This document shows, piece by piece, positions 11,817 through 63,784 of a DNA stretch of 64,000 nt. The position numbers and the translations under genes were made by a program. The stretch lies in IMG/VR virus record IMGVR_UViG_3300021400_000113, positions 40,932 through 104,931 of that record; one strand, given 5' to 3'. The DNA comes from a virus. Its lineage: Duplodnaviria; Heunggongvirae; Uroviricota; Caudoviricetes. The notes below the pieces were generated by a model, which was given only the letters and a program-made list of their open reading frames with translations, had not been told where the DNA came from and did no database searches. Every line of letters begins with the position of its first letter. Within the stretch, counting starts at the first letter, position 1.

Positions 11817-11821
11817 TTTAT

Positions 11822-11896: not shown

Positions 11897-11971
11897 CTAA
11901 CGACTCTTACAGCAATTATTATAACCGCCATTTAATTTATATACAAGGTTAAGTATAGAGAGTCTAGATAT

Positions 11972-12161
11972 GCCGCCGTGGCTCAATGGTAGAGCAGCGC
12001 ACTTGTCAAGTTAGTTTAAGAGTAAAACACCCGAATCACAGGGATAAGACCGTATTAACTAATTAATTGACGAATTAATTAGGCGAAGATATGTAAGCTC
12101 AATACTTACACTTGGCTCCAGTAATGCGCAGGTTACAGGTTCAAGTCCTGCCGGCGGCTCC
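11972..12161 (+). tRNA. tRNA gene interrupted by a ~115-nt insertion in the anticodon loop (candidate intron-containing tRNA, possible TGT anticodon)
   Basis: Perfect acceptor gccgccg/cggcggc with CCA. D-arm gctcaatggtagagc. Anticodon stem 5' gcgca and loop start cttgtca at 11997-12008. Matching tgcgc lies at 12124-12128. T-arm cagg-ttcaagt-cctg follows. Confidence 0.45.
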
Positions 12162-12431
12162 AAGCGTTTAGGCGATATCGCTCTGAGAACAACCACCCAG
12201 GCAGTGAGGGGAGATAAGATATTCGCGAACAAGAGCTCCTTAGCCCTCACAATTAAGACAGGCTTTTCGGGTTAACACAGCAAATTATTTCCGAAGTAGT
12301 ATAAAGGTAGTACACTGTGAATAAAACCTCAGAGATTTCGGTTCGAATCCGAACCCCCTGTCTGTCTTGGAATTGCGGTTGAAATCTTCGGATGAAACCT
12401 GTCCCGGAGGATGCGTCCAAAGGGATTTTAT

Positions 12432-12517
12432 GGGCAGATGGCCGAGTGGCTTAAGGCGGCGGTCTTGAAAACCGTTGACGTGATGAACGTCCGTGGGTTC
12501 AAATCCTACTCTGCCCG
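12432..12517 (+). tRNA. tRNA-Ser (anticodon TGA), class II
   Basis: Perfect acceptor gggcaga/tctgccc. D-arm gccgagtggcttaaggc. Anticodon stem gcggt/accgt, loop cttgaaa. Variable arm gacgtgatgaacgtc. T-loop ttcaaat. Confidence 0.65.
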
Positions 12518-12536
12518 CTAATTATATATAAAGGAA

Positions 12537-16738: not shown

Positions 16739-16751
16739 GGAGGAATAAAAG

Positions 16752-19216: not shown

Positions 19217-19281
19217 ATATATGTAAAAAAGAAAACCTACGGTCGTGACAACGACTAAGATGAAAAGGAGAGAAAAGGAAT

Positions 19282-20884: not shown

Positions 20885-21475
20885 ATGCTTCCGAATTTTC
20901 ACTTCTCTATTGAACGTTGGCGCAAGAATAAGGAATATGGAGTATGGGTTAGTACAGAAGGGCGCATTCGACTTATTCAAAATAAAGAATTTCTTAATGT
21001 TCGTATTGATAAAAGTGGATATTGTGTTGTCTTTACAGAGAAAGGACAACAATTCGTACATCGCCTTGTAGCTTACACTTGGCTTGGGGACAAACGAAAT
21101 GAGAAGTATAATATTGATCATATCAATAGCAATAAACGCGATAATTCTGTGAGAAATCTGCGTTGGGTAAAAATTGAAATTAATACCCAATATGCTCAAT
21201 ATACACGAACACAACTTGATTCAATAGAGTGTATTGAAAAAAAAGAAGATATAGAGACACGAAAACAGCTATTATATCAGCGCTTTCGTAATAAGGAAAT
21301 CTATATTGGTATTAATGACAATTACTTTTCCGATTATGTAGAAATTTGTAAATTTTTACATATCTCTAATACCCCTCCTCTTAAAGTATTTTGCGCAAAT
21401 GTATTAATGGCTATTGAAAAGAATACTACATATATGGGATATATATGGAATATTAAGGAGAAGGACGATGAATAA
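20885..21475 (+). CDS. HNH homing endonuclease
   Basis: HRLVAYTW...IDHINSNKRDNSVRNLRWV is an HNH_3 / NUMOD-type motif. Confidence 0.6.
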   Translation: MLPNFHFSIERWRKNKEYGVWVSTEGRIRLIQNKEFLNVRIDKSGYCVVFTEKGQQFVHRLVAYTWLGDKRNEKYNIDHINSNKRDNSVRNLRWVKIEINTQYAQYTRTQLDSIECIEKKEDIETRKQLLYQRFRNKEIYIGINDNYFSDYVEICKFLHISNTPPLKVFCANVLMAIEKNTTYMGYIWNIKEKDDE

Positions 21476-30048: not shown

Positions 30049-31131
30049 ATGGAAGTTAAAGTTGTAATTGGAGCTAACTACGGCGATGAAGGAAAAGGTT
30101 TGGTTTCTGGTAATCTGGCAAGAGAAGCGCAAAAAGAACAGAAAAAAACACTAACAGTATTTTATAATGGAACTGCGCAACGCGCCCATAGTTTTGGTAA
30201 TACTGTACAGCATTGGCTCGCTGCGGGAGAAATTTTTGGTAGCGATACCTTTTATCATTCAATGTTTGTAGTTGATCCAATTACACTTTGGCTTTCTAAT
30301 TCTCCTGTTTATATTGATCCACGGTGTCGTGTTATTCTTCCATGTGATGTATTTTCTAATCGTAAATTAGAAACTAGTCGTGGAGATAAACGACATGGCT
30401 CTTGTGGATTTGGACTTTTTGCCGCGGTTCAACGTAGTAAATATCCTGAATATTGTATAACTGTTAATGACTTTCAAGATCCATATAATTTATATTTTAA
30501 ATTAAAAGAAATTAATGAAAAACATTATCCCATGAATTTTGATGATATATATAATATAGATAATTTTATGAAAGCCGTTGCCCACATCACAAGCAAATGT
30601 AAAATTATTACTTTTGAAGATTTAATTCAAGAAAAAAATTATGATACTATTATCTATGAAGGCGGGCAAGGTTTGCTTCTTGATCAGACTAATATGGATT
30701 GCTTTCCGCACTTAACTCCTTCTAGTGTTGGCATGTATAATATTGCTAATGATATTAAAAGCTTAAATTGTTCAGTAGATTTATTTTATGTATCTCGTAC
30801 ATATATGACTCGTCACGGAGCTGGACCCATGGAAAGTGAATGTTTAAAACGGCATATTAATCCAAATATTGTAGACCTTGTAAATCAACCTAATAAATGG
30901 CAAGGAGAATTGCGGTTTGGACATATTAATTTAGATACTCTATATGCTCGTATTAAAAAAGATGCTAATATCTATTCAGACAATGCCAATATCAATTTAG
31001 TATTTACACAATTAAATTATACAAACAATAAAATTGATACAATTGAAGGTAAAAAAGAAATTGTAAAGCCCGGCTTTTGTTCTAAACTCTATGTTTCAGA
31101 TAATAAACTATATATTGAAAGGAAGGAATAA
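30049..31131 (+). CDS. adenylosuccinate synthetase (PurA)-like enzyme, short form (PurZ candidate)
   Basis: N-terminal VVIGANYGDEGKG matches the PurA GDEGKGK P-loop. At 360 aa it is shorter than bacterial PurA. Confidence 0.6.
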   Translation: MEVKVVIGANYGDEGKGLVSGNLAREAQKEQKKTLTVFYNGTAQRAHSFGNTVQHWLAAGEIFGSDTFYHSMFVVDPITLWLSNSPVYIDPRCRVILPCDVFSNRKLETSRGDKRHGSCGFGLFAAVQRSKYPEYCITVNDFQDPYNLYFKLKEINEKHYPMNFDDIYNIDNFMKAVAHITSKCKIITFEDLIQEKNYDTIIYEGGQGLLLDQTNMDCFPHLTPSSVGMYNIANDIKSLNCSVDLFYVSRTYMTRHGAGPMESECLKRHINPNIVDLVNQPNKWQGELRFGHINLDTLYARIKKDANIYSDNANINLVFTQLNYTNNKIDTIEGKKEIVKPGFCSKLYVSDNKLYIERKE

Positions 31132-33600: not shown

Positions 33601-33909
33601 ATGATAATGCGGGAAGAAATACTTGAATTTATTTATCGTCGATTTAATAATGACTGTCATTGGACAGACGGTAATTGTTATTACTTCGCAGTCATTTTAA
33701 AAGCTCGTTTTCCCAAAGGTGAAATTTGGTATGACGCAGTTGATGATCATTTCATATGTAAAATAGAAGATTTATTTTATGATTGGAATGGAACCTGTAC
33801 ACAATATCAAATTGATGAGCGATTATTAAAACATGTTTATAAATGGGATGATTACAGAAAAATTGATCCTATACATTATGAAAGAATAGTTAAAGATGTA
33901 ATAAGGTAA
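33601..33909 (+). CDS. hypothetical protein
   Basis: ORF of 102 aa followed by a terminator hairpin. Confidence 0.45.
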   Translation: MIMREEILEFIYRRFNNDCHWTDGNCYYFAVILKARFPKGEIWYDAVDDHFICKIEDLFYDWNGTCTQYQIDERLLKHVYKWDDYRKIDPIHYERIVKDVIR

Positions 33910-33932
33910 GCAAAAGCTTACCTTATTTTTTT
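33904..33932 (+). terminator. rho-independent terminator
   Basis: Hairpin aaggtaagcaaaagcttacctt followed by a T-run. Confidence 0.5.
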
Positions 33933-33947
33933 ATTGGTGGTGATAGA

Positions 33948-36821
33948 ATGGCAATAAAAAGTAAACCTCATAAATCCCCAAATTTAAATTGGCATAATAT
34001 GGGCAATTTAATTTTTTATAATGGACTAGAACCTTTTAATTTTTATTTTGATCTATTGTTAGAGGACTATGAAAAGCGTCCTCCTGAATATAATAGCTTT
34101 GCTAACGCTATTGGAGAAGCCGCGAAAAGTAAATTTAATTCAACTATAAACTCATTAAAAAATAATAAAGACGACGAAGGAATGACAAAATTAGAATCAA
34201 TACCCGCTTATTTAGAAAAAGCTATTTAGAAAGAATCAAATAATGAATTAGCTTTTTTTAAACAAAAATATGAATGGTTTAAATCAAATTTTTCTGAAGA
34301 AGAATTAAATAATTTACCAGAATTAAAATTTTTATTCGATTTTTTTTCCAATCCAACCACTCAAAGTGGAACTATTGATTATCCTCGCTTTTTAGCCGCA
34401 ATAAATATATTAATACAAGGATATGATAATGCAAAAGAAATAGTAAAATATGAGCGAAAGCGTCTAGAAGATTTAGAAAAACGATTCGCAGAAGCGAGAA
34501 AGGCCGCGGGAAGACGTGCAGTCGGATTAGCGAAAAAAAAATATGGATATGACGATATTGAAAAATAGGAATAGTGGCGAGAAACCGCAAAAATGAAAAA
34601 TCGTCGAAAAGTAGAAATTCATTATTTAAAAAATAAAAATTTCAATGATGAAAAAAAAATAAAAGGCTTAGGGTTAAAAACACGACTAGAAGGATTAGCG
34701 AAAACTGCCGATGTTGAAGTCGCAGATTGGATTACTAAAACATTATAGAATATGTTAGAATAGCCAGCAATACGTAATAAAATAGAAACATTAATTATTA
34801 AAAATAAAAACTTAGTATTTACAAATCCATAGCAATTAGCGCAAAAAGTCAAAAGCTCTTTAGTACAAAATATAACTAGTTATGGCGTTAAAAATATAGG
34901 AAAAATATTATCAAATCAAATTACTACAAAAAATCTCGATGAAATTATTTCAGAAGTTGAAAAAGATTTTACATATGATTATGAAATAGAAGGATTTTAC
35001 GAAAATTTTGGATAGTATGGTATTGAATTGGATTTTTTTAGAAATCCTAATAACTTAAATAAAGATGGCACTAAATCCGCGGAAAGACTATATGAAGCAT
35101 TAAAGCGCCTACAACATTTGCTTTCTTTATCACGACAAAAAAATAGTAGAATAAAACTTACCGACGAACAAAAATTTGTTGCTTCTGTTTTTTTTAAAGA
35201 TGAAGGAATTATTAATATAATGAGCATGATTTCTACTATTGAAAAATAGATGAAAGAAGTAGAGAAGGCAATTGAAGAAGTAAAAAAAACAGGACAGGCG
35301 CGAGATAAAACCTTAAGACTTACATATAAAGAATATATTCCCAATCAGCTCAGAGGTGAAAAAAATGATGGTAAAATTAAACTTCATATTGACGCAAATG
35401 GGAATATAGATTTAACCTCTCTTAATAGAATATATGGTAAATATACTAAAGAATTAGGATTTGGCTCTGACCGCATAAGAGCAAATACTTTATAGGGATT
35501 AGTATCAGGATTAAAATCTCGTCTAAGTTAGAAAATGCGAAATCAATTAGAAGATTTAATTTCTGGAAATACAAAAATTAAACGCAATAAAAAATTTTCT
35601 ACTTAGTCACAAATTAATCAAGCATTATAGGAAGGACTTGAAGGAATAACCGTATTTATAAGCGCCCCAGATCTCTCAGAAATTGCGCAAGGACTTCAGT
35701 TTCATATGGATGGAGATAACGTTTCTTTAATATGGACAGGACCACATAAAACAAAAAATGACTTCGTTACTATTACTATTAATACCCCAATAGCAGAAAT
35801 AAAAACAGAAGTTTCTTCTATATTAAATACTGATATTGAAAATCTTGGAGAAGATATAGAACAATTAATTTAGAATAGCAGAAAAGAAACTGCGAAACTT
35901 TTAGGAGAAGGACTAGCACACTATTCAACTAGCTTATCAGATAAAAAACAATATAATAAACAAAATGAAATTATGAAAGAATATGAAAATTCATAGAAAG
36001 AATACTTTGAACTATCTGAAAAAAATAATGAATTATTAGAAAATATGCCAAATCTTAAAGAATTATTAGAACGTGTAGAACGCACAAATAAAGGGCAATC
36101 CCCAGAACAAATTTCCGCGAAGAAAAAACAACTTCTTACAATGTTAACAGATTTCTTTTACGAATCTTCTACAATGAAAACCTTTAATCATTATGTTAAT
36201 GATGTTGGATTTGTAGGAGGAGGAATAGGAGGAGACGTCATAGCCCAAATGAATAAAATTGAAGAAATGTTTTTAAATGCAGGAATTTAGCTTGGAACTG
36301 ATAAAGATTGGTTAATAGGAGCTATTATTAACTGTTCTTCTCATAGTGTTATAGGAACTGAATATTAGAGTACTATTGAGCAATATTTAGGAGCTATAGC
36401 GGTTTTTGCAATGTTTGATGAAGGAGCCGTCGAATAGAGTGTAATAAATAATACCGCCAATATAAAAGGTAATACTAAATTTTTACATTTATACAGATTA
36501 AACGGAGGATATTATTTAGGTTCATATGTACTAACAAGAGTATTAGAATAGTTTAATGAATATATTTCTAAAATAGAAGAAGTTTCTACTAAATATTCTA
36601 ACATACACGGAGGAATTGCTATTCTAGGAGGTGGAATGACTCCACAAGATATACCAAATAGAGGACTTTATTCTTCAGAACCACAAAATCGTTCTCCTTG
36701 GCAAACTGTATCTGCTACTGCAAAAGGACGCGCATCAATATAGGTAGTATTTTTAGCAGGATTATTACAGACATTAAATTAGATTGAGGCCGCATTAAAT
36801 AATATTGAATATCCCGCCTAA
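33948..36821 (+). CDS. large (~958 codon) protein with ~21 in-frame TAGs; possible tape-measure or internal virion protein
   Basis: ORFs 33948-34229, 35028-35249, 35250-35495 and 36045-36290 all lie in frame 0. The frame is unbroken by TAA or TGA until TAA at 36819-36821. Gly-rich GFVGGGIGGDV segment and coiled-coil-like regions. Confidence 0.45.
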
Positions 36822-40368: not shown

Positions 40369-40397
40369 TTGACAATAATTTAAATTTATGATATAAT
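40369..40397 (+). promoter_or_regulatory. conserved phage promoter copy (TTGACA)
   Basis: ttgaca at 40369-40374 and tgatataat at 40389-40397. Confidence 0.5.
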
Positions 40398-41613: not shown

Positions 41614-41802
41614 ATGAATAAACAAAAATATGATAAGGCACAAGTATGGGAAGATATAATAACAGAATATTTCAATCGTCATCCTGATGCTGGCCTTGCT
41701 TGGTGGCAGCTTCCACTAGAAGAACAGCCCGAAGAATTTAAGGTACATATGTATGATATTATTTGGACATTTTTAAATAATAAGGAGGAAAATAATAAAT
41801 GA
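41614..41802 (+). CDS. hypothetical protein
   Basis: ORF of 62 aa with RBS aaaggag. Confidence 0.4.
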   Translation: MNKQKYDKAQVWEDIITEYFNRHPDAGLAWWQLPLEEQPEEFKVHMYDIIWTFLNNKEENNK

Positions 41803-42353
41803 AAATTTATTTAGCTGGTTCAATTTTTTATTATGGTGATGTACTTCGTAACACAGAATGGGCTAAAAAAATCCGTGAAGCAATTCCAAATGTAGATTTA
41901 TATAGCCCTATTGAAAATACAGCTATAAATGGAACTGAGGGGAAAAAGAAATTTGCGGGCTCACAAGAGATTGCGAATGGAGATAATATTCGTCTAAATA
42001 ATACAGATATTCTTGTGGCTTGTATTGATGGCGATATTCTTCCAGCAGGCACTTGCGCTGAAATTGGGAAATTTCACGAAAAAATTGAACGCGGCGATCA
42101 TAAATATATTGTTGGAATTTGTACTGATAATAGGCAAATGTTCTTAACTCACAGTGAAGCAAAAGATCAAGGCGGTGCGGCGGCACTTGGAGAACAGCAA
42201 TATAGTTATCAAAATTTATATGTTACAGGATTAATTAAACAAGGTGGTATTTTAGTATCAAATATTGATGAGGCTATCGAATTTATTAAAGGTAAAGAAT
42301 ATGAATTTAATACTGAAAACCCATTAACATATTGCGATCCAATAATTTTATAG
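41799..42353 (+). CDS. nucleoside 2-deoxyribosyltransferase-family protein
   Basis: MKIYLAGSIFY N-terminus is typical of the NDT/Rcl fold. RBS aaggagg. Confidence 0.55.
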   Translation: MKIYLAGSIFYYGDVLRNTEWAKKIREAIPNVDLYSPIENTAINGTEGKKKFAGSQEIANGDNIRLNNTDILVACIDGDILPAGTCAEIGKFHEKIERGDHKYIVGICTDNRQMFLTHSEAKDQGGAAALGEQQYSYQNLYVTGLIKQGGILVSNIDEAIEFIKGKEYEFNTENPLTYCDPIIL

Positions 42354-42371
42354 AAAATTTGTTTAAAAACT

Positions 42372-42602
42372 ATGGCAAAAGGAAAACCTATAATTTATTG
42401 TAATCAATTTTTTGCTAATAAACTAATTAATTCAATATTTAAATATACAACAACTAATAAAATAGAAGAAAAAGAAGAAGAAGAAGAAGAATTAGTAGAA
42501 GAAGGATACATAGGAAAATTTAGAGGAACTCCTGTTTATTTAATAAAACATTTTCCACAAGAAACTCCTTATGCTATTGTATTGCCAATGCTAAAGGAAT
42601 AA
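42372..42602 (+). CDS. hypothetical protein
   Basis: ORF of 76 aa with a Glu-rich stretch. Confidence 0.35.
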   Translation: MAKGKPIIYCNQFFANKLINSIFKYTTTNKIEEKEEEEEELVEEGYIGKFRGTPVYLIKHFPQETPYAIVLPMLKE

Positions 42603-42646
42603 TTCATTTGATGAAATTTTACCAATTTTGAAGGAGCAATATAAAA

Positions 42647-43951
42647 ATGAATAATATGTTATATAATATAAATGATAAACCACAAACTCTAAAAGAATGG
42701 ATTGGTTATTCTTTACAAGTTGTCTTATCTTGTATTACCGCAACACTTTTAATTTGTTTGATTGCAGGTACTAATTTAACCGCAGGTATGTGCGCGGCAG
42801 GTATTTCAACGATATTTTTTCTATTTATTACAAGATTTAGAGCCCCTATTGTAATTTCAAATAGCGGGGCAACAGTCTCCGCGGTCATTGGAGCAATTGC
42901 TCTTACAGAACCCATTCAAAAAAATTTTGCTGGGGTAATTTTAGGTGGTATAGTTATTGCCATTATTTACTGTGTCGCGGCATTATTTATTAAACGATTT
43001 GGCGTGGATTGGATAACCAAATTAATTACACCAGTAATGTCAGGAGCAATTATATTAATTATTTCTATTCAATTAGGATTCTTTATTCCTACTTATGCAC
43101 AAATTAATGGTTCTTATTCTTTACTTGGCGTCGGGATAGCATTATTTGATATGCTAATTACTTTACTTTGTGCTTTTTATGGTAAAGGAATTATTAAACG
43201 TTGGCCTATTCTTTTTGGAGTTTTAGGAGGTTATATTTTAAGTTTAATCTTAACATTAACTAATTTTGCTCCATTAGTAGATTTAACACGTTTTCAAAAT
43301 ATGAAATTAATTACCATTCCTGATTTTGCCTTTTTACACGTTTCATTTAAAAATTTTAATTGGAGTGTTTTACCACAGATTATTATTAGTTTTGCATTAG
43401 TTTCCGCTGCGGCATTAGCCGAACATCTTGGGGATATGATAAATGCTTCTAATATTTGTGGAAGAGATTTCCTGAAAGATCCTAGCTTATCTCGAACACT
43501 CTGCGGCGATGGCTTAGGCTCTTTAATTGGAACGATTATTGGTGCTCAACCAAATACGACCTATACAGAAAACCTTTCTGCTATTCTTATTAGTAAATGT
43601 GCTAGCGTATATATTACATTACTCGCGGCAATAGAACTAATTTTATTAGCATTTTTAGGACCTTTTAACGCAGTACTTCAAGCAATGCCTAATGCAGTAT
43701 TTGCGGGTGCTTCTATTTGCTGTTACGGTATGATTGGCGCGAGCGCAATGAAATATTTAAAACAAGCAAATATTAACTTTGAAAATCAAAAAACCATGTG
43801 GATTTTTGCCATTATGTTAATGGTAGGAACCTCTGGTTTAGCAATTTCTACTGGTCGTCTAAACATTAGTGGTATTTGTCTAGCTATTATAGTTGGTATT
43901 ATTTTGAATGTAGTTTTAAAAGATAAATCTACTGATTTAGAAAATAAATAA
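42647..43951 (+). CDS. NCS2-family nucleobase permease (xanthine/uracil permease-like)
   Basis: 434-aa polytopic membrane protein. N-terminal region ...LKEWIGYSLQVVLSC... resembles uracil/xanthine permeases. Confidence 0.55.
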   Translation: MNNMLYNINDKPQTLKEWIGYSLQVVLSCITATLLICLIAGTNLTAGMCAAGISTIFFLFITRFRAPIVISNSGATVSAVIGAIALTEPIQKNFAGVILGGIVIAIIYCVAALFIKRFGVDWITKLITPVMSGAIILIISIQLGFFIPTYAQINGSYSLLGVGIALFDMLITLLCAFYGKGIIKRWPILFGVLGGYILSLILTLTNFAPLVDLTRFQNMKLITIPDFAFLHVSFKNFNWSVLPQIIISFALVSAAALAEHLGDMINASNICGRDFLKDPSLSRTLCGDGLGSLIGTIIGAQPNTTYTENLSAILISKCASVYITLLAAIELILLAFLGPFNAVLQAMPNAVFAGASICCYGMIGASAMKYLKQANINFENQKTMWIFAIMLMVGTSGLAISTGRLNISGICLAIIVGIILNVVLKDKSTDLENK

Positions 43952-43965
43952 AGGAGATTAAAATT

Positions 43966-45276
43966 ATGGAATTTTTAGAAAAACATTTTCACATTAAGGA
44001 ACGCGGTTCAACAGTTTCTCGTGAAATAATGGGTGGTCTTGTTACTTTTATGGCTATGGCATATATAATCTTCGTTAATCCTTCAATTTTAGGAGCGACA
44101 GGAATGGATTATACTGCTCTAACCCTAGCGACTTGTATTAGCGCCGCAATTGGCACTCTATTAACTGCCTTTATGGCTAATGTGCCTTTCGCACAAGCTC
44201 CTGGTCTTGGTATCAATGCTCTATTTACTTATACTTTATGTATGAAGATGGGTTATACTTGGCAGCAATGTTTAGGTATGACTTTCATCAGTGGTTTAAT
44301 TTTTCTAATCATTACTCTTTCTCCACTTCGTAATAAAATTATTGAAGCCATTCCCGCACAGCTAAAGCGCGCGATTAGTGTTGGTATTGGTATGTTTATT
44401 GCTCTTATTGGTCTAATTAATGCTGGCATTGTAACTGCCAATAACAATCTACTTGACTTAGGAACTATTACTAGCGGCGCAGCTCTACTAGCAATTATTG
44501 GCCTTATTATTACTTCTATTCTACTTGTATTTAAAGTTCGTGGAGCAATTCTATATTCAATTATTGCGACAACTATTATTGGTATTCCTCTTGGAGTAAC
44601 AAATTTAAATGTAACCTTTAATTTCCAAAATCTTTCTCTTGCTCCAACCTTATTCAAGCTAACTTTCTCTGGTCTAGCTGCGTTCGGTATCTTTCCTCTA
44701 ATTACATCTATTCTAACTCTTAGTATGTGCGACTGTTTTGATACTGTTGGTACGCTAACTGGTTGCGCAGCAGGTTGTGATATGCTAGATGAAAATGGTG
44801 AAATGAAGAGCAAAGATATGACTAAGGCTCTAACCGCCGACGCTATTGCTACTTGCACTGGTTCTGTATTAGGCACAAGCACAGTTACTACATTCATTGA
44901 GTCTTCTACTGGTGTAGCTGCGGGTGCTCGCACAGGCTTTGCCTCAATAATTACAGGTGTTCTATTCTTACTTGCTTGTTTATTTGCGCCAATCGCAGGT
45001 ATTGTACCTTCCGCCGCAACTGCTCCTGCACTAATTATTGTTGGTATCTTTATGATGAAGAATGTTACTCAAATTGATTGGAGTGATATGGAAATTGCTA
45101 TTCCTGCTTTCTTAACTATCGCAATGATGCCATTTTCATATTCAATTAGTGACGGTATTGGATTTGGTCTAATTTCTTGGACGTTACTAAAAATGGTTCG
45201 TGGTAAGTTTAAAGAAATTCCAGTTCTAATGTATATACTTTCCGCATTATTTATTCTAATGTATATCGTAACATAA
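43966..45276 (+). CDS. NCS2/AzgA-family purine (adenine/guanine/hypoxanthine) permease
   Basis: FHIKERGSTVSREIMGGLVTFMAMAYIIFVNPSILG is the characteristic N-terminus of PbuG/AzgA-type permeases. Confidence 0.65.
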   Translation: MEFLEKHFHIKERGSTVSREIMGGLVTFMAMAYIIFVNPSILGATGMDYTALTLATCISAAIGTLLTAFMANVPFAQAPGLGINALFTYTLCMKMGYTWQQCLGMTFISGLIFLIITLSPLRNKIIEAIPAQLKRAISVGIGMFIALIGLINAGIVTANNNLLDLGTITSGAALLAIIGLIITSILLVFKVRGAILYSIIATTIIGIPLGVTNLNVTFNFQNLSLAPTLFKLTFSGLAAFGIFPLITSILTLSMCDCFDTVGTLTGCAAGCDMLDENGEMKSKDMTKALTADAIATCTGSVLGTSTVTTFIESSTGVAAGARTGFASIITGVLFLLACLFAPIAGIVPSAATAPALIIVGIFMMKNVTQIDWSDMEIAIPAFLTIAMMPFSYSISDGIGFGLISWTLLKMVRGKFKEIPVLMYILSALFILMYIVT

Positions 45277-45307
45277 GGGTTGAAAATTCAACCCTTTTAT
45301 TTTTTTT
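45277..45307 (+). terminator. rho-independent terminator
   Basis: Hairpin gggttgaaaattcaaccc followed by a T-run. Confidence 0.6.
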
Positions 45308-45334
45308 GACTATTTTTAAAAATTATGCTATAAT
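45306..45334 (+). promoter_or_regulatory. conserved phage promoter copy
   Basis: ttgact at 45306-45311 and tgctataat at 45326-45334. Confidence 0.5.
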
Positions 45335-45363
45335 ATAATTAGAAAGGTATAAGGAGAACGAAT

Positions 45364-45531
45364 ATGTCAATATATAGAATTTATACAAAACGAATTGCTT
45401 ATGAATTAAGAAAACAAGGTTTTAAATTTTTAGGAACAGATATAAATGAAAACTTCCCGCAATATTTAGTCTATTTATTTGAAGATACTCCTGAACTTCA
45501 TGCGGCATTAGTAAAACTCACGCATAAGTGA
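45364..45531 (+). CDS. small hypothetical protein (55 aa)
   Basis: RBS aaggag then ATG at 45364. Stop TGA. Confidence 0.35.
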   Translation: MSIYRIYTKRIAYELRKQGFKFLGTDINENFPQYLVYLFEDTPELHAALVKLTHK

Positions 45532-45544
45532 GGAGGTATCTAAT

Positions 45545-45877
45545 ATGGCAAATATTAATAATTCTCCGGCATTATATATTCGCGGGAAAAAGTGGAGAGA
45601 ACCAAACGAACAGCGCATAAGTGTGGCAGATAGATTATTGGTGGCAATAGGTCAAGAAAAGGGACTAACCGCGAATGATAGACTATTACTAATTTTACTT
45701 ATTGGTCAAACCGATGATCCAACCAAACCTTTTCATCCATCAGAGAAGTGGATTCGTGATAGAACTGGTATGTCACATGATACATATATTTCGCGGCGAA
45801 AAGCACTTGCTGAAAAAGGTATTATCAATTTTATAGAATATGATTCTATTACTGTGAATCTTGATTATTTTGAATAA
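45545..45877 (+). CDS. putative replication initiator / DNA-binding protein
   Basis: RBS gaggagg. HTH-like segment. Iteron array lies immediately downstream. Confidence 0.4.
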   Translation: MANINNSPALYIRGKKWREPNEQRISVADRLLVAIGQEKGLTANDRLLLILLIGQTDDPTKPFHPSEKWIRDRTGMSHDTYISRRKALAEKGIINFIEYDSITVNLDYFE

Positions 45878-45879
45878 GT

Positions 45880-46150
45880 CAGAAAATCCTACCTCTCAAG
45901 AGGTAGGATTTTTAGTCTATATTTTAAGTAGGATTTTCCTACCTGATATAGTAGGATTTTCCTACTTACGATATAGTAGGATTTTCCTACCCACGAGAAG
46001 CCTAAAAATCCTACCTATAACATAATATATAACATAATATATAAACATAATATAACATAAAAAATATTTATAGCACCGCCGAAAAATCCTACCTTCCTTC
46101 ATAATTAGCCGCTTCGCACTTCGTGCTTCGCCGCTAATTATGAAGGCGCA
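45880..46150. repeat. origin-like region: iterons, AT-rich direct repeats and a large palindrome
   Basis: Iteron gtaggattttcctac in at least 3 direct copies plus inverted copies (aaaatcctacct). AT-rich aacataatata repeats at 46015-46070. Near-perfect ~22-bp-stem palindrome at 46100-46150. Confidence 0.5.
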
Positions 46151-46159
46151 AGCGAACAT

Positions 46160-46188
46160 TTGACAAAAAGTAAATTTTATGTTATAAT
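46160..46188 (+). promoter_or_regulatory. conserved phage promoter copy (TTGACA)
   Basis: ttgaca at 46160-46165 and gttataat at 46181-46188. Confidence 0.5.
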
Positions 46189-46207
46189 AAAAGAAAAAGG
46201 TGAAAAT

Positions 46208-46612
46208 ATGAAACTAACTTTAAAAGATAGAATTAAATTTCTATTTCGTAAGCGTTATAGTAATAAATGTAAACTAAGTACGCGCGGCAACTATATGGTT
46301 TATTATTTAATTCGTAAATATATTAATGAAGAAAAAATTGATACCATTCAGGCTTATGAAGAACAAGTTGATAACTGCTTGAAAGAAATTAATGAAATGA
46401 AGTTTTTTGAAACAGTAACAAAAGAAAAACCTGAATATCCAGATACTCCTGAAATTCGTAGAGTTTTTGCCGCGACATTAGTTATAAATATAATACTTAA
46501 AACTGCTATTCCAGAGGATAAAGAAAAAATATTATCTTATATTTCTGAAGAAAAATATAAAAAAGATATATTAGAAATTCAACAAAAATCTGACTGGATA
46601 AAATTTATATAA
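46208..46612 (+). CDS. hypothetical protein
   Basis: RBS aaaggtg then ATG at 46208 (MKLTLKDRIKF...). Confidence 0.4.
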   Translation: MKLTLKDRIKFLFRKRYSNKCKLSTRGNYMVYYLIRKYINEEKIDTIQAYEEQVDNCLKEINEMKFFETVTKEKPEYPDTPEIRRVFAATLVINIILKTAIPEDKEKILSYISEEKYKKDILEIQQKSDWIKFI

Positions 46613-46625
46613 GAGGTGATATATT

Positions 46626-46913
46626 ATGAAAACTATTATTCGTGGCCGTGACAGCGGAAAAGCAAAAGAATTATTAGAATATGCTCAACAAAATGATGCT
46701 ATGATTATTACTCAAAATAAAAGAGCATTTAAAGTAAAAGCAGAATCATTAGGATTTAAAGATATTGAAATTATTGATTATGAAGATTTACAATATGATA
46801 ATTATGATGATAATAAACCAGTAGTAATTCACAATGGTGATAAAATGTTATATTGGCTTATTTCTCAAAAATATGGCCTTGAAACTATTGGTTTTACCGC
46901 GACGGAGGTTTAA
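46626..46913 (+). CDS. small P-loop-like protein (paralog of 48061-48354)
   Basis: MKTIIRGRDSGKAKELLEYAQQN parallels MLRIIGTRGSGKTTQLLRYAAEN. Confidence 0.45.
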   Translation: MKTIIRGRDSGKAKELLEYAQQNDAMIITQNKRAFKVKAESLGFKDIEIIDYEDLQYDNYDDNKPVVIHNGDKMLYWLISQKYGLETIGFTATEV

Positions 46914-46915
46914 AT

Positions 46916-47116
46916 ATGTTTGAAGTAGATGAATATGTAAAAATAGATAAACCATTTTTTAAAGATGGAAAAATCAGTATAAACGTAAACACAGATAAAG
47001 AAAAAATTGAAGAAGACGTAGATACATTAAAACATATTCTTTATAAATTATATAAATTATTTGGAAGAAAAATAATTCTTGTTATAGATGAAAATGGAGT
47101 AGAATTATATCAATAA
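46916..47116 (+). CDS. hypothetical protein
   Basis: ORF of 66 aa. Confidence 0.4.
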   Translation: MFEVDEYVKIDKPFFKDGKISINVNTDKEKIEEDVDTLKHILYKLYKLFGRKIILVIDENGVELYQ

Positions 47117-47117
47117 C

Positions 47118-47146
47118 TTGACTTTTTATTAAAGTTAAAATATAAT
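47118..47146 (+). promoter_or_regulatory. conserved phage promoter copy
   Basis: ttgact at 47118-47123 and tataat at 47141-47146. Confidence 0.5.
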
Positions 47147-47177: not shown

Positions 47178-47642
47178 ATGAGAATTTATCTTGCTGGTCC
47201 TTGTGATAGTGAAAATCGTTCTATGATGGTAATGGTCGCAAAAGAGCTTCGTAATTATGACAGTGATATTGAAGTTTATTGCCCGTTTGAATTAAAAATT
47301 GAAAATGCCTGGGACTATTCTCAGGAAGATTGGGCACAAATGGTATTTGATAAAGACGTAGAAGCAATTGATAATTGTGACGTTATGTTTATGATTAGTC
47401 TTGGTCGCATTTCTAGCGCGGGAACCAACTGGGAACAGGGCTATGCTTATGCCAAGGGAAAGCAAGTTATTGTATTCCAGATTACAGAAGTTCCTACTTC
47501 CTTGATGACGTATTGCGGATGCAAGTATTTTATTAATACTACAAAAAAAGAACTAATTCATGAGTTATATTGGACTCTTGAAAAGCTATATGACAATACA
47601 CTTTGTTACTATACCGATAAATGTAGGACGGTGCTTACTTAA
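47178..47642 (+). CDS. nucleoside 2-deoxyribosyltransferase-like protein (second copy)
   Basis: MRIYLAGPCDS N-terminus. RBS aaaggaag. Confidence 0.5.
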   Translation: MRIYLAGPCDSENRSMMVMVAKELRNYDSDIEVYCPFELKIENAWDYSQEDWAQMVFDKDVEAIDNCDVMFMISLGRISSAGTNWEQGYAYAKGKQVIVFQITEVPTSLMTYCGCKYFINTTKKELIHELYWTLEKLYDNTLCYYTDKCRTVLT

Positions 47643-48621: not shown

Positions 48622-48867
48622 ATGTTCGATGAAGAAAGAGTTATGAAAATTATTTAGAAATTAAATCAACAAATTTAGCAAGAATTAAGTGACTATAATA
48701 ATGATTATCGTCCTTTAATTTTAGCTTTTATTTTATATTGCAACCCAAATAAATAGAATAATGATAAATATAATTATGAAACATTTTGTAAAGTTTCTAA
48801 AATTATTAAAAGCAACAAAGAATTACAAGAAATTTTTATGATACGTATAGGTGAAATAAATGATTAA
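48622..48867 (+). CDS. hypothetical protein with three in-frame TAGs
   Basis: ATG at 48622. Frame is open through TAGs to TAA at 48865. Confidence 0.3.
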
Positions 48868-49171
48868 AAGTGAAGCACTTGAAAATTTAGATTGGTATTT
48901 TTCAGTTGGTGATGGATTTAACGCTGAAATTGTATCAGAAAGTTATTAGTTCATAAAAAAACGACTTGAAGACTCAGAGCAATTAACCGATACATTAATA
49001 AAAATTTTAATTTATTTATTTAATCATTATAAATAGGATTTATTTAAAAATTTTAATTGTAATGGTGATAATTGGATTGATTTATTAACTATTTATAATA
49101 AAATTGTAGATGAAATGAAAAAAGAAATGCCTGAACCTTGGTATAATTATGGAATAAAATTAAAAGATTGA
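48860..49171 (+). CDS. hypothetical protein with two in-frame TAGs
   Basis: ATG at 48860. Frame is open to TGA at 49169-49171. Confidence 0.3.
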
Positions 49172-49196
49172 CTTTTTCTTAAAATTATATTATAAT
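49168..49196 (+). promoter_or_regulatory. conserved phage promoter copy
   Basis: ttgact at 49168-49173 and tataat at 49191-49196, followed by taatatgtaaaagag. Confidence 0.55.
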
Positions 49197-50107: not shown

Positions 50108-50136
50108 TTGACTTTTTATTAAAATTATGATATAAT
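50108..50136 (+). promoter_or_regulatory. conserved phage promoter copy
   Basis: ttgact at 50108-50113 and tgatataat at 50128-50136. Confidence 0.55.
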
Positions 50137-51952: not shown

Positions 51953-51978
51953 GTCAAGTTAAATAACTTGACTTTTTC
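51952..51978 (+). terminator. terminator hairpin overlapping next promoter -35
   Basis: agtcaagttaaataacttgact palindrome followed by ttttt. Its 3' arm is the -35 TTGACT. Confidence 0.45.
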
Positions 51979-51996
51979 TTTAATTTATGTTATAAT
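51968..51996 (+). promoter_or_regulatory. conserved phage promoter copy
   Basis: ttgact at 51968-51973 and tgttataat at 51988-51996. Confidence 0.55.
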
Positions 51997-58442: not shown

Positions 58443-58472
58443 TCCAGTCAAACTTTTAGGAGGAATTAAGTT

Positions 58473-59471
58473 ATGGCTAATATTGATATATTTACTCTTG
58501 AGCCAAGTAAAATTTCAAGAGATTTAAAAGGTAAGTTTTTACTTATTTATGGTTTGCCAAAATCCGGTAAATCAACTTTTGGATCTTAGTTACCTCGTTC
58601 GTTGTTCCTTAATTTTGAACAAGGTACAAACGCATTAGCTGGTATTCGTAGCGTACCTATTCTTCGTTGGACAGATTTTAAAAAGGTATTAAGTTAGTTA
58701 AGAAAACCGCAAGCACGCGAAATGTATGATAGTATAGTTGTTGACACTGCTTCGATTGCTTGGCAACTATGCGAAGAATATATTAAACAGCGTGAGGGAG
58801 TAGATTCAATTCGGGATATTCCTTGGGGCCAAGGATGGAATATGCTAAAAACAGAATTTTCAGAGTGTTGGCGCGAAATTACCCTACTCGGTTTTGGCAT
58901 ATTATTTATTGCTCATAGTAAGGAAAAGCCCACAGAAATGCGCGATGAAGAAGGCAATCCTATTACAGCAGTCGCTCCCGATCTACCAAATAATGCCTAT
59001 ACAATCATTAATTCCATTGTAGACATTATTGGATACTTACAAGTTCAGATGAATCCGGACGGTACTTCTCAACGCTACCTATATACTCGTTCTACTCCAA
59101 CAGTATTCGCCGGTTCTCGTTATCAATATTTAGCGCCAAAAATTAAGTTTGGTTATAAAGAACTTGTAGAAGCAATTGGTGATGCAATTGATAAAGCGGT
59201 TGAACTTGATGGAGCAGAAGTAACAGATCATACTGAAATGGCACATATTGTAGATAGACCTTTCCAAGAAGTAATGGAAGAAGCAAAACGAATTTGGATC
59301 GGATATATAGAAAGTGCTGAAACAGAAGAAGAAAAAGAACGGCACTTAATGATTATGAAGGATATTATAAAGAAAGTATTTGGAACAGAAGATTTCAAAT
59401 TAAGTCAAGCCGTTCCTTCACAATCTAGTTTGGTCGAGTTGTTTATTGATGAAATGAAAAATCTTTCCTAA
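58473..59471 (+). CDS. Sak4-like / AAA_24 RecA-fold ATPase with two in-frame TAGs
   Basis: RBS aggagg then ATG at 58473. Walker A YGLPKSGKSTFGS. Frame is continuous with ORF 58722-59471 across 2 TAG codons. Confidence 0.55.
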
Positions 59472-60071: not shown

Positions 60072-61331
60072 TTGACATTATCAGATAAAGCTGCTTATCG
60101 TAGCGTTATCGGCAGTCTTATGCATAATCCACTTTTTTTTATAGAATATCCAGATATGGTGCCGACTGATTTTGATCAGGAAATAGCCCGTATTTGTTTT
60201 TTAATTATTAAAAAATTATATAATGAAGGCGCTGTAGTTATTACGCCAATAGAAGTAGATCAAGAAGTAGAAAGACATGAACGAACAGCAATAATATATA
60301 AAAGAGAACATGGTCTGGATTATATAAAAGATGCTTATGAGATTGCTGAACCGGGAAATTTCCCGTTATTTTATTCACGAGTAAAAAAGTGCGCATTATT
60401 ACGTCGCTTAAAAAAAGATAAATATGATATTAGTGAATTTTATATAGATGAAAAAGAAGCGGAGAATCCTTTACAGGAAGTAAAAGCACAAGAGCGATTC
60501 GAAGGTGCAACAATAGAAGAAATTTTAAATTCTGTTGAAGGAAAATACAATATTATAAGAAATGAGTTCTTAGCGGGTGGAAAAACAAAAGGAGATCCCG
60601 CAGAAGGTATATTTACATTAATTGAAGATTTAAAACAATCTCCAAGTATTGGCCCCGCATTAGAAGGAGATATTTTTAGTATGGCGTGTCGCGGAGCAAG
60701 AGCTGGATGTTTTTATTTAAAATCCGCCTCAACCAGTGCCGGTAAGACAAGAACTGCGGTATTTGATGCCTGTAAATTAGCATATCCAACAAGATGGTCT
60801 CATGAACTTGGAACTTTTGCCCAAGATGCATTTAAAACAACGGGGGAATTTGTTGAGCCACGAAAAGTTTTATTCATCGTTACAGAAATGGATAAAGTAG
60901 AATTACAAACAATTATGTTAGCGTATTTATCAGGAGTAGATGAAGATCATATTCTTAGAGGAGATTATGATATGGGAGAAGAAAGTAGAGTTAAATACGC
61001 GGCAAGAATTATTGAAAAATATAAGGGAAATTTTATTGTTGAAGAAATTAGTGATCCGAACTTAACAAATGTTGAAGCAACAATAAAAAAATATGCGACT
61101 ATTGATAAAGTAAAATATGTATTTTTTGATTATATACATTCAACCGCAAGTATGATTGGACAATTTGCTAAAAATAATATTCGTGAAGATAGTATTTTGA
61201 TGATGATGGCTAATCAATTAAAGCAATTAGCAAAAGATTATAATATTTTTATTTTTTCCGCAACACAGGTAAATGCTAATGCTATGATGGATGATGCAGA
61301 ATTTAAAAATGAAACCTGTATAAGGGGTTCC
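60072..61331 (+). CDS. DnaB-like replicative helicase, exon 1 (interrupted by intron)
   Basis: TTG start. DnaB N-terminal motif YRSVIGSLMHNP. Walker A SAGKT. ATQVNAN (DnaB SQLNR-like). Ends ...ETCIRGS immediately before TGA. Confidence 0.55.
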
Positions 61332-62319
61332 TGATAGTTGTGCCCCAAAAAACCCTAACCGCTTACCGGCGGGGTCGCAATAGCGGCTAACGAGGAAGTC
61401 CTAAAAATTTTTAGGATAATCTCGTGTCATGTAAGAAAATATCATAAATTAATTGTCGGAAAAATACTTATCTTATGACAGTAAGATAAGGAGGGATGCT
61501 TTATGGATAAAGTATCAGGAATATATGTAATAACAAATTTAATTAATAATAAACAATATGTTGGTTTATCAAAAGACTGCCATAAACGTTGGGCTGATCA
61601 TTATAATAAAAGTTATACTTCTAATAGAAAAGATGATTTAGAAAAGGCATTATACAAGGCAATGAAAAAATATGGCAGAGATAATTTTTCTTTTTAGATA
61701 ATCGAAGAATGTTCAGAAGATAAATTAGCAGAAAGAGAAATTTATTGGATTGAATAGCTTAATAGCTATGAAAAAGGATATAATGAAACTCGCGGAGGAG
61801 ATATATCAGGTCCAAATAATATTCACCTCGGAGAAGAACATGGAATGGCTAAATTAACAGAAGAAGAAGTTATTCAATGTAGAAATTGGTATAAAGAAGG
61901 AAAACGTAGTAAGGAGATATGGGAAAAATATTTTCAAAATAAAATTCAATATAGCGGATTTTAGAGAATGTGGCATGGAAAGACATGGAAACATATAATG
62001 CCAGAAGTTTTTGAAAATAATCCTCATCCGCGGAAAAAAGTAACTCCTGAAATAATATAGCAAATAAAAGATATGTATAATATTCAAAATATGAGTTGTG
62101 CTGAAATATACCATTATTTTGATGAAACAATTAGTAGAACTAGTATAAACGATTACTGTCATAATCGTAGATGATATTTTCTTAAGCGATGTATCGACTA
62201 TTCCCTTAATCGGGAAGTACAATAACTATTGGTACGTTATTGGAAACGGGTTTTCTTATCTAATTAGATAAGTAAGAAATAGTCAGTGCCATTGGTAACA
62301 ATGGAATAAACGGCAAAAG
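61332..62319 (+). mobile_element. putative group I intron in the helicase gene, carrying a GIY-YIG homing-endonuclease ORF
   Basis: ~1-kb insertion between helicase segments. Joining exon 1 (...CIRGS) to 62320 (IADKADMGFVM...) restores the conserved DnaB region (RESGSIEQDADvvmf). The insertion ends in G at 62319 and exon 1 ends in U. Confidence 0.45.
61503..62174 (+). CDS. GIY-YIG homing endonuclease with four in-frame TAGs
   Basis: RBS aaggaggg. GIYVITNLINNKQYVGLS GIY-YIG motif. Further YWIE-[TAG]-LNSYEKGYNETRGG. Frame is open to TGA at 62172-62174. Confidence 0.55.
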
Positions 62320-62660
62320 CCATAGCAGATAAGGCAGATATGGGTTTCGTTATGACGCGAATAAGTGAAAAAACTTGGAATAGCGTTGTTGGAAAATTTC
62401 GTATGGCGGCGCTGGAAGGAATAATAGATAAAGAAATAATTGATAATCCAGATAAGCGTCCAACACATATACTTGATATATATAAAATGAGACGCGGTCG
62501 TTATAAAAATGTAAGAATTTGGATTAGCTTACATCTTGGAACTGGTTATAGAAAAGATCTTATTATGACAACCGCGGATAATCAACCTATTGATAGAATA
62601 GATAAATTTAATACAACAGTTCCAATTCAGATTTCTAACTGGGCGGAGGAAATTAAGTGA
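62320..62660 (+). CDS. DnaB-like replicative helicase, exon 2
   Basis: Frame of ORF 62340-62660 extended upstream to 62320. ...IADKADMGFVM... and ...KMRRGRYKNVRIWISLHLGTG... match the DnaB C-terminal motifs. Confidence 0.5.
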
Positions 62661-63784
62661 TTTACAGTTTAAATGAGCAAGATAATGAATTAGATTTATT
62701 AGAAGCCAGTAAAATGGATATAATAAATTCAATTACATTAAATGACGTAAAAACTTTTTTAGAAAGCCTAGGAGTAGATCAAATAAGTGTTAATGAAGAA
62801 AAACAATATTTAATCTGTCCAACAATATGCCATAATCCATTACATGAAGCAGAATCAATGAAATTGTATTGGTATCAAAATAATAAAATATTTAGATGTT
62901 ATACTGAATGTAATGAAGCAATGTCTATATTCACTTTGTATAAAAAATTTATCGCGCAGAATGAAGATAGAGATATAACAGATGAAGAAGCAGAAGATTA
63001 TGTAAAGCATTGCTTAAAACAAGTTATTAAAGTAAATCAGCAAAAGGTTTCTGGGATTACATTAGATAGAGAAAAATATAAATTTACAAAAAATATTCCA
63101 GTATTAGATGAATATTCACCTAATATTTTATCATATTTTACCCATTATTATCATCCATTATGGCTGCGAGATGGAATAACAAAAGAGTCTATGGATCATT
63201 TTCAGATTGGGTTTTCCATAGCGCAAAATAAAATTATAATTCCACATTTTGATATAAATGGTCGCTTAGTAGGTATTCGCGCGCGAACTATTGATCCGCA
63301 GGAAGCCGAAGAATTTGGTAAATATAGACCAGTACAAATAGGGAATACAATATATACACATCAACTTCAATTTAATTTATATGGTATTTATGAACATCAA
63401 ATTAGTATCCAGCATCGTCGTTCCGCTATTATCGTAGAAGGAGAAAAATCAGTTTTATTAGATGACGGATATTATGGAGAATTAAGTAATACAGTGGCTT
63501 GTTGTGGTTCAACATTTAACAAATATCATATAAGTCTTTTAACTAATGTTTTAGGCGCAAATGAAATTATTGTAGCACTTGATAAGGAATATGATGATTA
63601 TAGAAGCGACAAAGCTAAAAAATATAAAGAAAAGATTGAAGGTATGTGCCGTAAATACTTAAATCAAGCTAATTTTTCATATATATGGGATAAAGAAAAC
63701 TTATTAAGAGAGAAAGATTCTCCATTTGATAGAGGAAAAGAAGTATTTGAATATTTATATAAACATAGAATAAAAGTTAAATAA
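62657..63784 (+). CDS. DnaG-like DNA primase (zinc-binding plus Toprim)
   Basis: GTG start with RBS ggagg. Zinc-ribbon CPTICHNPLHEAESMKLYWYQNNKIFRCYTEC. Toprim IIVEGEKSVLLDD and ALDKEYDD. Confidence 0.6.
   Translation: MIYSLNEQDNELDLLEASKMDIINSITLNDVKTFLESLGVDQISVNEEKQYLICPTICHNPLHEAESMKLYWYQNNKIFRCYTECNEAMSIFTLYKKFIAQNEDRDITDEEAEDYVKHCLKQVIKVNQQKVSGITLDREKYKFTKNIPVLDEYSPNILSYFTHYYHPLWLRDGITKESMDHFQIGFSIAQNKIIIPHFDINGRLVGIRARTIDPQEAEEFGKYRPVQIGNTIYTHQLQFNLYGIYEHQISIQHRRSAIIVEGEKSVLLDDGYYGELSNTVACCGSTFNKYHISLLTNVLGANEIIVALDKEYDDYRSDKAKKYKEKIEGMCRKYLNQANFSYIWDKENLLREKDSPFDRGKEVFEYLYKHRIKVK

Follow-up and report, generated by a model that had tools for sequence, protein, structure and literature searches.

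A putative iteron-type replication origin beside a stand-alone winged-helix gene in a large uncultivated rumen phage

The lambda initiator O binds the iterons of its origin with an N-terminal winged-helix domain and recruits the helicase through its C-terminal domain; a palindrome lies on the far side of the AT-rich tract. In iteron plasmids (pPS10, R6K, F and P1), a winged-helix Rep binds iterons set at a period of about two turns beside an AT-rich DNA-unwinding element (DUE), and the classical Reps carry a pair of winged-helix domains and recognise asymmetric iterons in monomeric form. Ori-lambda is made up of four 18-bp iterons and a 38-bp AT-rich sequence, all inside gene O (PMC3349717). 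At SaPI and PICI origins, the iterons are found immediately 3' of the rep open reading frame (ORF), and the AT-rich region has iterons on both sides (PMC9371898). The d(GCGNAGC) or 'mini-hairpin DNA' motif has exceptional stability whatever the base N and is a poor ligand of SSB; there are reports of mini-hairpins at the primase-dependent origins of G4, St-1 and alpha3, at ssiA of the RSF1010 oriV and in the promoters of the N4 virion RNA polymerase (PMC13037366). The ssiA signal has CCGAAGG and that of G4 has GCGAAAGC, and such hairpins are associated with primase start sites (PMC13037366).

The window examined here (the whole stretch of DNA that was analysed, 64 kb) contains a compact locus at 45876-46146, in a 280-base gap, which we read, with a probability of about 70%, as a theta-type, initiator-dependent replication origin built on the lambda plan and belonging to a phage of about 180 kb. 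To our knowledge, the origins of large uncultivated phages have almost never been mapped. The original prediction of an iteron-type origin at this place is supported by the initiator homology of the adjacent protein, by the intragenic iterons of distant relatives, by conservation at about 14 loci and by the AT tract, which is the least stable 60-bp duplex of the window; in addition, the dyad site is not dispersed to promoters elsewhere.

Like lambda O with ori-lambda and other siphovirus O-like origins, the locus joins dyadic tandem iterons to an AT-rich putative unwinding tract. The protein family matches O-like PHROGs and, as in lambda, distant homologues (loci L144 and L149) carry the array inside the gene. 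Unlike the lambda gene, the window gene stops (TAA, 45877) before the iterons, so that the putative origin is intergenic, and its product corresponds to the N-terminal domain only. Further differences from lambda are that no P/DnaC-type partner is evident, that there are six plus one sites instead of four, that the hairpin is bulged and carries conserved GNA triplets, and that the genome is about 180 kb long with its own helicase, primase and gyrase.

The locus resembles the SaPI/PICI origins in that its iterons lie downstream of the gene, with units on both sides of the AT tract. In SaPIs, however, Rep is a helicase that loads itself and carries its winged helix at the C-terminus, and the iterons measure 5-6 bp, whereas the locus has a 110-aa protein that is a winged helix only and 15-bp dyads placed asymmetrically (6 and 1) about the AT tract. 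With iteron plasmids it shares the two-turn period beside an AT-rich tract and the HTH_36 domain, which also occurs in plasmid Reps; in contrast to the classical Reps, it has one domain and dyadic sites. A strand-specific GNA-loop hairpin beside an unwinding region is common to the locus, the RSF1010 oriV and G4/St-1/alpha3; the RSF1010 oriV combines iterons and an AT-rich region with the hairpins ssiA and ssiB. The motifs of the locus lie on one strand only, unlike in RSF1010, which has a signal on each strand; recognition by a primase is putative, and neither the proteins nor the hairpin sequences of RSF1010, G4, St-1 or alpha3 are homologous to those of the locus. The elements are of a recognisable kind in a new arrangement and imply no new replication principle. 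Going by the sequence, what is new is the joining of three parts: an initiator cut down to its DNA-binding domain, an origin outside the gene and a strand-specific GNA-motif hairpin. This split design raises the question of how a helicase would be recruited in the absence of a lambda-type initiator C-terminal domain.

Genomic setting and elements of the locus

Every gene of the window is encoded on the + strand, and 25 tRNA genes span positions 409-12518. Family searches placed the locus among genes of nucleotide metabolism and replication: an ATP-dependent DNA ligase, RNase H, two nucleobase permeases, nucleoside deoxyribosyltransferases, gyrase B, gyrase A, an AAA_24 protein, a DnaB-like helicase and a primase. 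Relatives were found on IMG/VR and rumen-metagenome contigs of 157-190 kb, and neither the locus (by blastn) nor the protein (by tblastn) had a match among 50,697 GenBank phage records. From these two results, the source of the window is assigned to a large (about 180 kb) uncultivated rumen phage.

GC skew, the check attached to the original prediction, did not mark the locus: neither GC skew nor cumulative skew switched anywhere in the window, and the cumulative curve rose steadily through the locus without an inflection, a weak test with little power because all the genes of the window lie on one strand.

The elements of the locus, with the helicase and primase genes, were as follows (U1-U7 are the units of the iteron array):

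45306-45334, + strand: sigma-70-type promoter, TTGACT-17-TATAAT, with TG (11 of 12 matches)
45364-45531, + strand: ORF of 55 aa, weakly matching DUF5659 (PF18903, E 1.1e-3, under the curated cut-off)
45545-45877, + strand: winged-helix ORF of 110 aa, putative origin-binding protein, TAA stop
45876-45894: U1 (AAGTCAGAAAATCCTACCT), dyad site with a good right half
45901-45918: U2 (AGGTAGGATTTTTAGTCT), left half-site only
45926-45944: U3 (AAGTAGGATTTTCCTACCT), full dyad
45949-45967: U4 (TAGTAGGATTTTCCTACTT), full dyad
45974-45992: U5 (TAGTAGGATTTTCCTACCC), full dyad
45998-46016: U6 (AAGCCTAAAAATCCTACCT), right half-site abutting the AT-rich tract
46016-46075: AT-rich tract (90% AT), putative DNA-unwinding element
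46076-46094: U7 (CCGCCGAAAAATCCTACCT), half-site beyond the AT tract
46096-46146, - strand: 51-nt bulged GC-cored hairpin
46160-46188, + strand: consensus promoter, TTGACA-17-TATAAT, with TG (12 of 12 matches)
60072-61334: DnaB-like helicase gene
62657-63784: primase gene (PHROG search)

The promoter at 45306-45334 serves a two-gene operon that consists of the DUF5659 ORF and the winged-helix ORF. The second promoter (46160-46188), which accounts for the promoter copy expected at the end of the hairpin, points away from the putative origin and into a gene that varies between relatives. By tblastn, the DUF5659 ORF was located directly upstream of the initiator-like gene in 21 of 23 loci (the exceptions were L129 and L148), in close and distant relatives alike; at L149 it was present twice, once before each of two initiator-like genes. 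Because of this position, the DUF5659 protein is a possible partner of the 110-aa protein. No literature on the DUF5659 family was found.

The winged-helix protein and the conserved module

The ORF at 45545-45877 had a Pfam HTH_36 match (E 8.4e-6), confirming the small HTH protein that had been proposed there. Its only PHROG match was to the N-terminal region of phrog_270, 'replication initiation protein' (E 1.6e-5), a modest replication-family match for the window protein itself (E about 1e-5). HTH_36 is the DNA-binding domain of some plasmid Rep proteins (PMC3832669) and is also present in proteins of Stx-phage replication modules (PMC8951638).

The AlphaFold (AF2) model of the protein (pLDDT 72) contained a single winged helix after about 25 disordered residues, with helices at residues 29-37, 43-53, 67-74 and 78-90 followed by a beta hairpin; the second tandem domain of a classical WH1-WH2 Rep was absent from the model. 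A sequence-profile search of the PDB gave a weak match to the winged helix of a metal-dependent regulator, and Foldseek against the PDB returned generic winged-helix domains only (E > 0.04). The structural neighbours were winged-helix repressors such as the LexA N-terminal domain and MarR and, being generic, they do not discriminate between an initiator and a repressor.

A profile search of 1.84 billion representative proteins retrieved 293 relatives, in which the domain was almost always N-terminal and mostly part of proteins of 180-350 aa. Ten long relatives were scanned against PHROGs: nine had matches, all to replication families, the tenth had no match, and none of the ten matched a transcription-regulator family. 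The families matched were O-like (phrog_678, 345, 2365), DnaD-like helicase loader (phrog_186) and 'replication initiation protein' (phrog_270, 428, 19658). From the family architecture and these replication matches, we infer that the window protein is the stand-alone origin-binding N-terminal domain of O-like/DnaD-like initiators: the homologous domain covers the whole of the 110 aa, and the C-terminal domain that recruits the helicase or loader is absent. The gene downstream of the locus was considered as a source of the missing C-terminal half and was ruled out, as it differs and is unrelated between relatives.

The close relatives comprised about 14 distinct loci, with proteins 56-92% identical to that of the window. 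Their elements follow the same order: the gene stop, an inverted pair of units, further units, a half-site abutting the ATAACATAATA repeats, usually one more unit, the GC-cored hairpin and a TTGACA/TATAAT promoter. Within these loci, the half-sites were GTAGGA or GTCGGA only, while the spacers and the hairpin stems diverged. The first gene after the promoter was not constant, being one of several unrelated small ORFs or a candidate GIY-YIG homing endonuclease (recognised by eye). Since the downstream gene varies between loci, conservation, as judged from these alignments, attaches to the gene with its array, AT tract and hairpin rather than to a promoter-operator pair for a particular gene.

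The distant relatives (L144, L148 and L149, from human-gut contigs) had proteins of 32-37% identity. Their arrays consisted of three 24-bp iterons (L144; GTAATAC-GG-TATTAC, also dyadic), four 24-bp iterons (L148) and six 23-bp iterons (L149; GAGTCAACACC), which begin right after the winged-helix coding region and run into an AT-rich tract. The ORFs of L144 (176 aa) and L149 (227 aa) stay open across the iterons and the AT tract. The iteron sequence shifts as the protein diverges (GTAGGA to GGTAATAC to GAGTCAACACC), without a change in the period (23-25 bp) or in element order; this is the pattern expected of a cognate pair of protein and site.

Loss of the C-terminal half, which is present in most family members, could also mean that the protein is a truncated O-like initiator retained for negative regulation or for the exclusion of competing phages, with an array that titrates or handcuffs initiator and does not fire. 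N-terminal initiator fragments can be competitive inhibitors. Iteron arrays can silence replication, and there is a lambda precedent in a plasmid carrying oop and the iterons ITN3-4, which inhibits the replication of lambda-type phages (PMC3349717). This decoy or remnant is nevertheless quite improbable: relatives spanning 56-92% protein identity keep the 110-aa form together with the full array, the AT tract and the hairpin, and such conservation of the whole module argues for a complete working unit and against a decoy. No full-length initiator paralogue was seen within the 64-kb part of the genome.

Centromeres and pac/cosB sites are likewise arrays of short repeats bound by small HTH proteins, so the array could be a parS/parC-like centromere or a pac/cos site, with the 110-aa protein as its centromere-binding or small terminase-like partner. 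We regard a segregation or packaging site as very improbable. The protein family matches initiators and not terminase small subunits or ParB/ParG, and the neighbours tested included no recognisable ParA/ParM-type or terminase gene. L144 possesses a separate candidate terminase-small-subunit-like gene (4757-5131; N-terminus by eye) besides its initiator homologue. On long contigs, the locus is well internal (e.g. at 137-148 kb of 180,932 bp) and not at the contig ends.

Dyad iterons and the AT-rich tract

Under the origin reading, the units are the binding sites of the initiator-like protein. The sequence GTAGGATTTT was found in seven exact copies within 45883-46092 and nowhere else in the 64 kb, starting at 45903, 45928, 45951 and 45976 on the + strand and at 45883, 46005 and 46083 on the - strand. 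When one mismatch was allowed, there were 23 matches, compared with 7.5 +/- 2.6 in dinucleotide shuffles, and none of 100 shuffles reached 23. The repeat unit is a 15-bp dyad, GTAGGA-TTT-TCCTAC; with up to two mismatches, this 15-mer had six sites in the window (five of them in the array), against 0.78 expected.

Given the dyad symmetry of the unit, direct repeats and inverted copies alike are full or half sites of a single site. The direct repeats first described (at least three copies at 45911-45990) were present to within a few bases, and the inverted partial copies were present at 45883, 46005 and 46083 but do not form a class of their own. The array was the best Tandem Repeats Finder (TRF) match of the window (score 107), and its units were the sole short-range direct-repeat families with at least three copies in the window. 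An exact scan of IMG/VR for the 15-mer gave mostly single chance matches, and two copies at one locus were obtained only from a contig that had already been found through the protein.

Six units (U1-U6, 23-26 bp from centre to centre) are followed by the 90% AT tract and then by the seventh unit. The junction of U6 with the AT tract (CCTATAAC) was kept even in distant relatives. U7 was a full dyad in several relatives and was absent in the L142/L143/L126 lineage.

In the AT tract, TATAACATAATA recurs at a 12-bp period (three to four repeats), with three copies of AACATAATA at 46019-46052 (period 12), in agreement with the AT-rich tandem units predicted for 46015-46070. With nearest-neighbour energies, the 60-bp duplex of lowest stability in the 64 kb started at 46012 (dG -55.6 kcal/mol). 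The core sequence of the tract was nearly invariant among relatives. A PurA/PurZ-like gene (30049-31131) matched phrog_1211 (PurZ-like, E 1.6e-36), and its best PDB matches were ordinary PurA. If this gene leads to a genome containing 2-aminoadenine, the argument from the low stability of the AT tract would be weaker, whereas the argument from its conservation would be unaffected.

Sites of 15 bp with dyad symmetry are typical of dimeric HTH repressors, and the closest structural matches of the protein are repressor DNA-binding domains. The 110-aa protein might accordingly be a transcription factor and the dyads its operators, used for autoregulation, as a roadblock, or for control of read-through from the upstream operon and/or of the 46160 promoter; strong promoters are present on both flanks. 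U1 and U2 together form a 14-bp hairpin followed by T5 (45882-45913), which resembles an intrinsic terminator, is canonical in the window and would be the terminator of the operon. An RNA-level role for part of the array is therefore plausible. In L136, L139 and L140, however, AAAATCGTTCT replaces the T-run and the inverted units persist, so that termination is at most a secondary use.

Other features of the locus also disagree with an operator array, which we consider unlikely. The units stay clear of both promoters: U7, which comes closest and is absent in one lineage, stops at 46094, at a distance of 66 bp from the -35 element downstream (46160), and the promoter at 45306-45334 has no unit at all. 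The gene supposed to be regulated differs between relatives, and the homologues match replication-initiator families only. In the distant homologues the repeats are intragenic and are followed by an AT-rich run, unlike operators, and the conserved AACATAATA tract and the bulged hairpin would be left unexplained.

The bulged hairpin and the proposed mode of initiation

On the far side of U7, a perfect hairpin of about 50 nt had been proposed at 46100-46150. A hairpin was indeed found, at 46096-46146, but it is not perfect, as 20 of 24 positions are complementary: it is built of 14 bp, a C:C mismatch, 2 bp, a 3x3 TTC/TTC internal loop, 4 bp and a 3-nt TTC loop. The fold z-score was -5.5 on either strand, and the bottom strand was more stable by 2.6 kcal/mol. 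Read on the bottom strand, GAA makes up the apical loop as well as each internal-loop triplet: there are two copies of GCGAAGC (the complement of 46111-46117 and 46125-46131) and ACGAAGT at the apex, where the loop is closed as C-GAA-G. Three occurrences of GCGNAGC were counted on the bottom strand of the 64 kb, two of them within the hairpin.

Covariation was assessed on ten distinct hairpins in an ungapped alignment centred on the apex. Paired cells made up 88.8% of the alignment, against 73% in shuffled alignments and 26-43% with slid partners, and 8 of 16 pairs had changed on both sides. The unpaired positions were the most conserved part of the hairpin. Across the 10 loci, the internal-loop triplets of the bottom strand were G-N-A in 19 of 20 cases (GAA, GGA, GTA and GCA were all seen) and were flanked on both sides by an invariant GC, giving GC-GNA-GC; half of the loci also had a GNA apical loop with a closing C:G. 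Mismatches of the type C:A on the top strand (G:T on the bottom strand) outnumbered the converse by 6 to 1. At 10 of 14 close-relative loci (11 of 15 with the window), GCGNAGC was present in 2-4 copies at +228 to +290 from the stop, and only one copy was found elsewhere in those loci. In most lineages the AT tract is followed by a significant hairpin, which was also detected in L129, L126 and L137 and, inside the ORF, in L144; the fold test gave no significant hairpin after the AT tract in L148 or L149.

Two roles at the RNA level were considered for the hairpin. An Rfam search of 45000-47000 returned nothing near the gathering score, which rules out a known RNA element at the locus. A terminator is unlikely, because no T-run follows the hairpin in the window and the comparable hairpin of L144 lies in coding sequence. 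A promoter-like site on the minus strand (46166-46137) overlaps the hairpin, the arm sequence of which is not conserved. From its strand-specific motifs, the hairpin is proposed as a candidate single-strand initiation signal, that is, an entry signal for a primase or a helicase.

For the putative origin as a whole, we propose the following sequence of events. Dimers of the 110-aa protein would bind the 15-bp dyads, GT(A/C)GGA-www-TCC(T/G)AC, which flank the AT tract with six sites on one side (23-26-bp period) and one on the other. The resulting nucleoprotein array would strain and open the adjacent tract of AACATAATA repeats. The bubble would then spread rightward, and the bottom strand of 46096-46146 would fold into an SSB-resistant hairpin of GNA loops (GCGNAGC), marking where the DnaB-like helicase (60072-61334) and the primase (62657-63784) encoded by the phage itself would enter or start. 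With priming on the bottom strand, synthesis would proceed to the right, as does all transcription in the window. As the 110-aa protein has no equivalent of the lambda O C-terminal domain, recruitment of the helicase would fall to another factor, for which the DUF5659 protein is a candidate, or to the DNA structure.

The most specific part of this scheme, in which the hairpin is a GCGNAGC bottom-strand ssi signal that directs the phage primase/helicase at an AT tract opened by an initiator consisting of an N-terminal domain only, is tentative, and we would hold it as possible but doubtful. If it were true, a large dsDNA phage would join an iteron origin of the lambda type to a priming signal of the G4/RSF1010 type, and a DNA structure or the adjacent DUF5659 protein would take the place of the protein-recruitment domain of the initiator. 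The locus is in any case a natural test case for the role proposed for mini-hairpin DNA at priming sites. More than one origin may exist in a large phage, or its replication may depend mainly on recombination.

The locus represents a concrete candidate origin, together with its predicted cognate binding protein, for a rumen phage clade of roughly 160-190 kb, and the module could be used as a replicon or as a marker for this phage group. The same clade also recodes TAG.

Nucleobase genes around the putative replication origin

The putative iteron-type origin (window 45876-46146) is flanked on its two sides (window 41799-45276 and 47178-47642) by genes for nucleobase import and salvage, as follows:

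41799-42353: nucleoside 2-deoxyribosyltransferase gene
42647-43951: xanthine/uracil-family permease gene, first of a tandem pair
43966-45276: xanthine/uracil-family permease gene, second of the pair
47178-47642: nucleoside 2-deoxyribosyltransferase gene

Permease and deoxyribosyltransferase genes were also found at the corresponding position in relatives, and such a set for nucleobase import and salvage is unusual for a phage.

A short adenylosuccinate-synthetase homologue (360 aa) is encoded at window 30049-31131 and was matched to phrog_1211 (PurZ-type family, E 1.6e-36) and to Pfam Adenylsucc_synt (E 2.7e-19). In the PDB sequence search, the top matches of its product were ordinary bacterial PurA, and no DatZ- or MazZ-like gene was recognised among its neighbours. 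The gene is a tentative hint that the DNA may contain 2-aminoadenine.

The ORF upstream of the initiator-like gene

Of the 23 loci searched, 21 have a small ORF (55-62 aa) with a weak match to DUF5659 directly 5' of the initiator-like gene, the exceptions being L129 and the distant relative L148. In L149, another distant relative, two such ORFs are present, each preceding an O-like/HTH gene. Representative positions are:

Window 45364-45531, + strand: DUF5659 ORF (weak match)
L126 (related locus) 4795-4983: DUF5659 ORF
L144 (distant relative) 2822-2971: DUF5659 ORF
L149 2774-2905 and 3896-4060: DUF5659 ORFs, two copies

No literature on the DUF5659 family was found; its protein may act together with the initiator as a partner.

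L144 is a locus on a human-gut contig, carrying a distant initiator homologue with in-gene iterons (3082-3612), between a 5' ORF that is tyrosine integrase-like by eye (683-1747) and a 3' ORF that is small terminase subunit-like by eye (4757-5131). If these by-eye readings are true, the layout resembles that of a small temperate phage or a PICI-like satellite.

Promoters, tRNA genes and TAG codons

The promoter copies noted in the original prediction match a set of seven near-consensus promoters (TTGAC(A/T)-17-TATAAT), all of them on the + strand of a 12-kb stretch:

40369-40397, +: promoter
45306-45334, +: promoter
46160-46188, +: promoter
47118-47146, +: promoter
49168-49196, +: promoter
50108-50136, +: promoter
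51968-51996, +: promoter

Several are located immediately 3' of terminator-like hairpins, and the set looks like a dense early-gene promoter array. The tRNA genes (n=25, covering most amino acids) are clustered at window 409-12518, all on the + strand.

Stop-codon recoding is already known in gut and rumen phages. In some of the window's genes TAG seems to be a sense codon, and several long + strand frames stay open only on this reading:

6638-6727, +: tRNA with anticodon CTA (tRNA gene search)
16749-19181, +: 811 codons, 10 in-frame TAGs, open only with TAG as sense
33894-36818, +: 975 codons, 20 in-frame TAGs, open only with TAG as sense
19264-20787, 48640-48860, 58470-59468 and 61485-62171: further regions of apparent TAG-sense reading

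The origin-flanking genes contain no in-frame TAG, including the HTH ORF (the initiator-like gene, window 45545-45877), which ends with TAA.

Possible homing-endonuclease-type genes

Genes of this type are possibly present at variable positions in the window and a relative. In L139 (identical to L006), a related locus, the gene 3' of the origin is replaced by an ORF that is GIY-YIG-like by eye (3620 onward), and this slot may be an insertion hot spot. By eye, the N-terminus of that ORF is resembled by that of the TAG-containing frame between the helicase and primase genes (window 61485-62171). An HNH_3 ORF is located at window 20885-21475 (Pfam E 2.2e-9).
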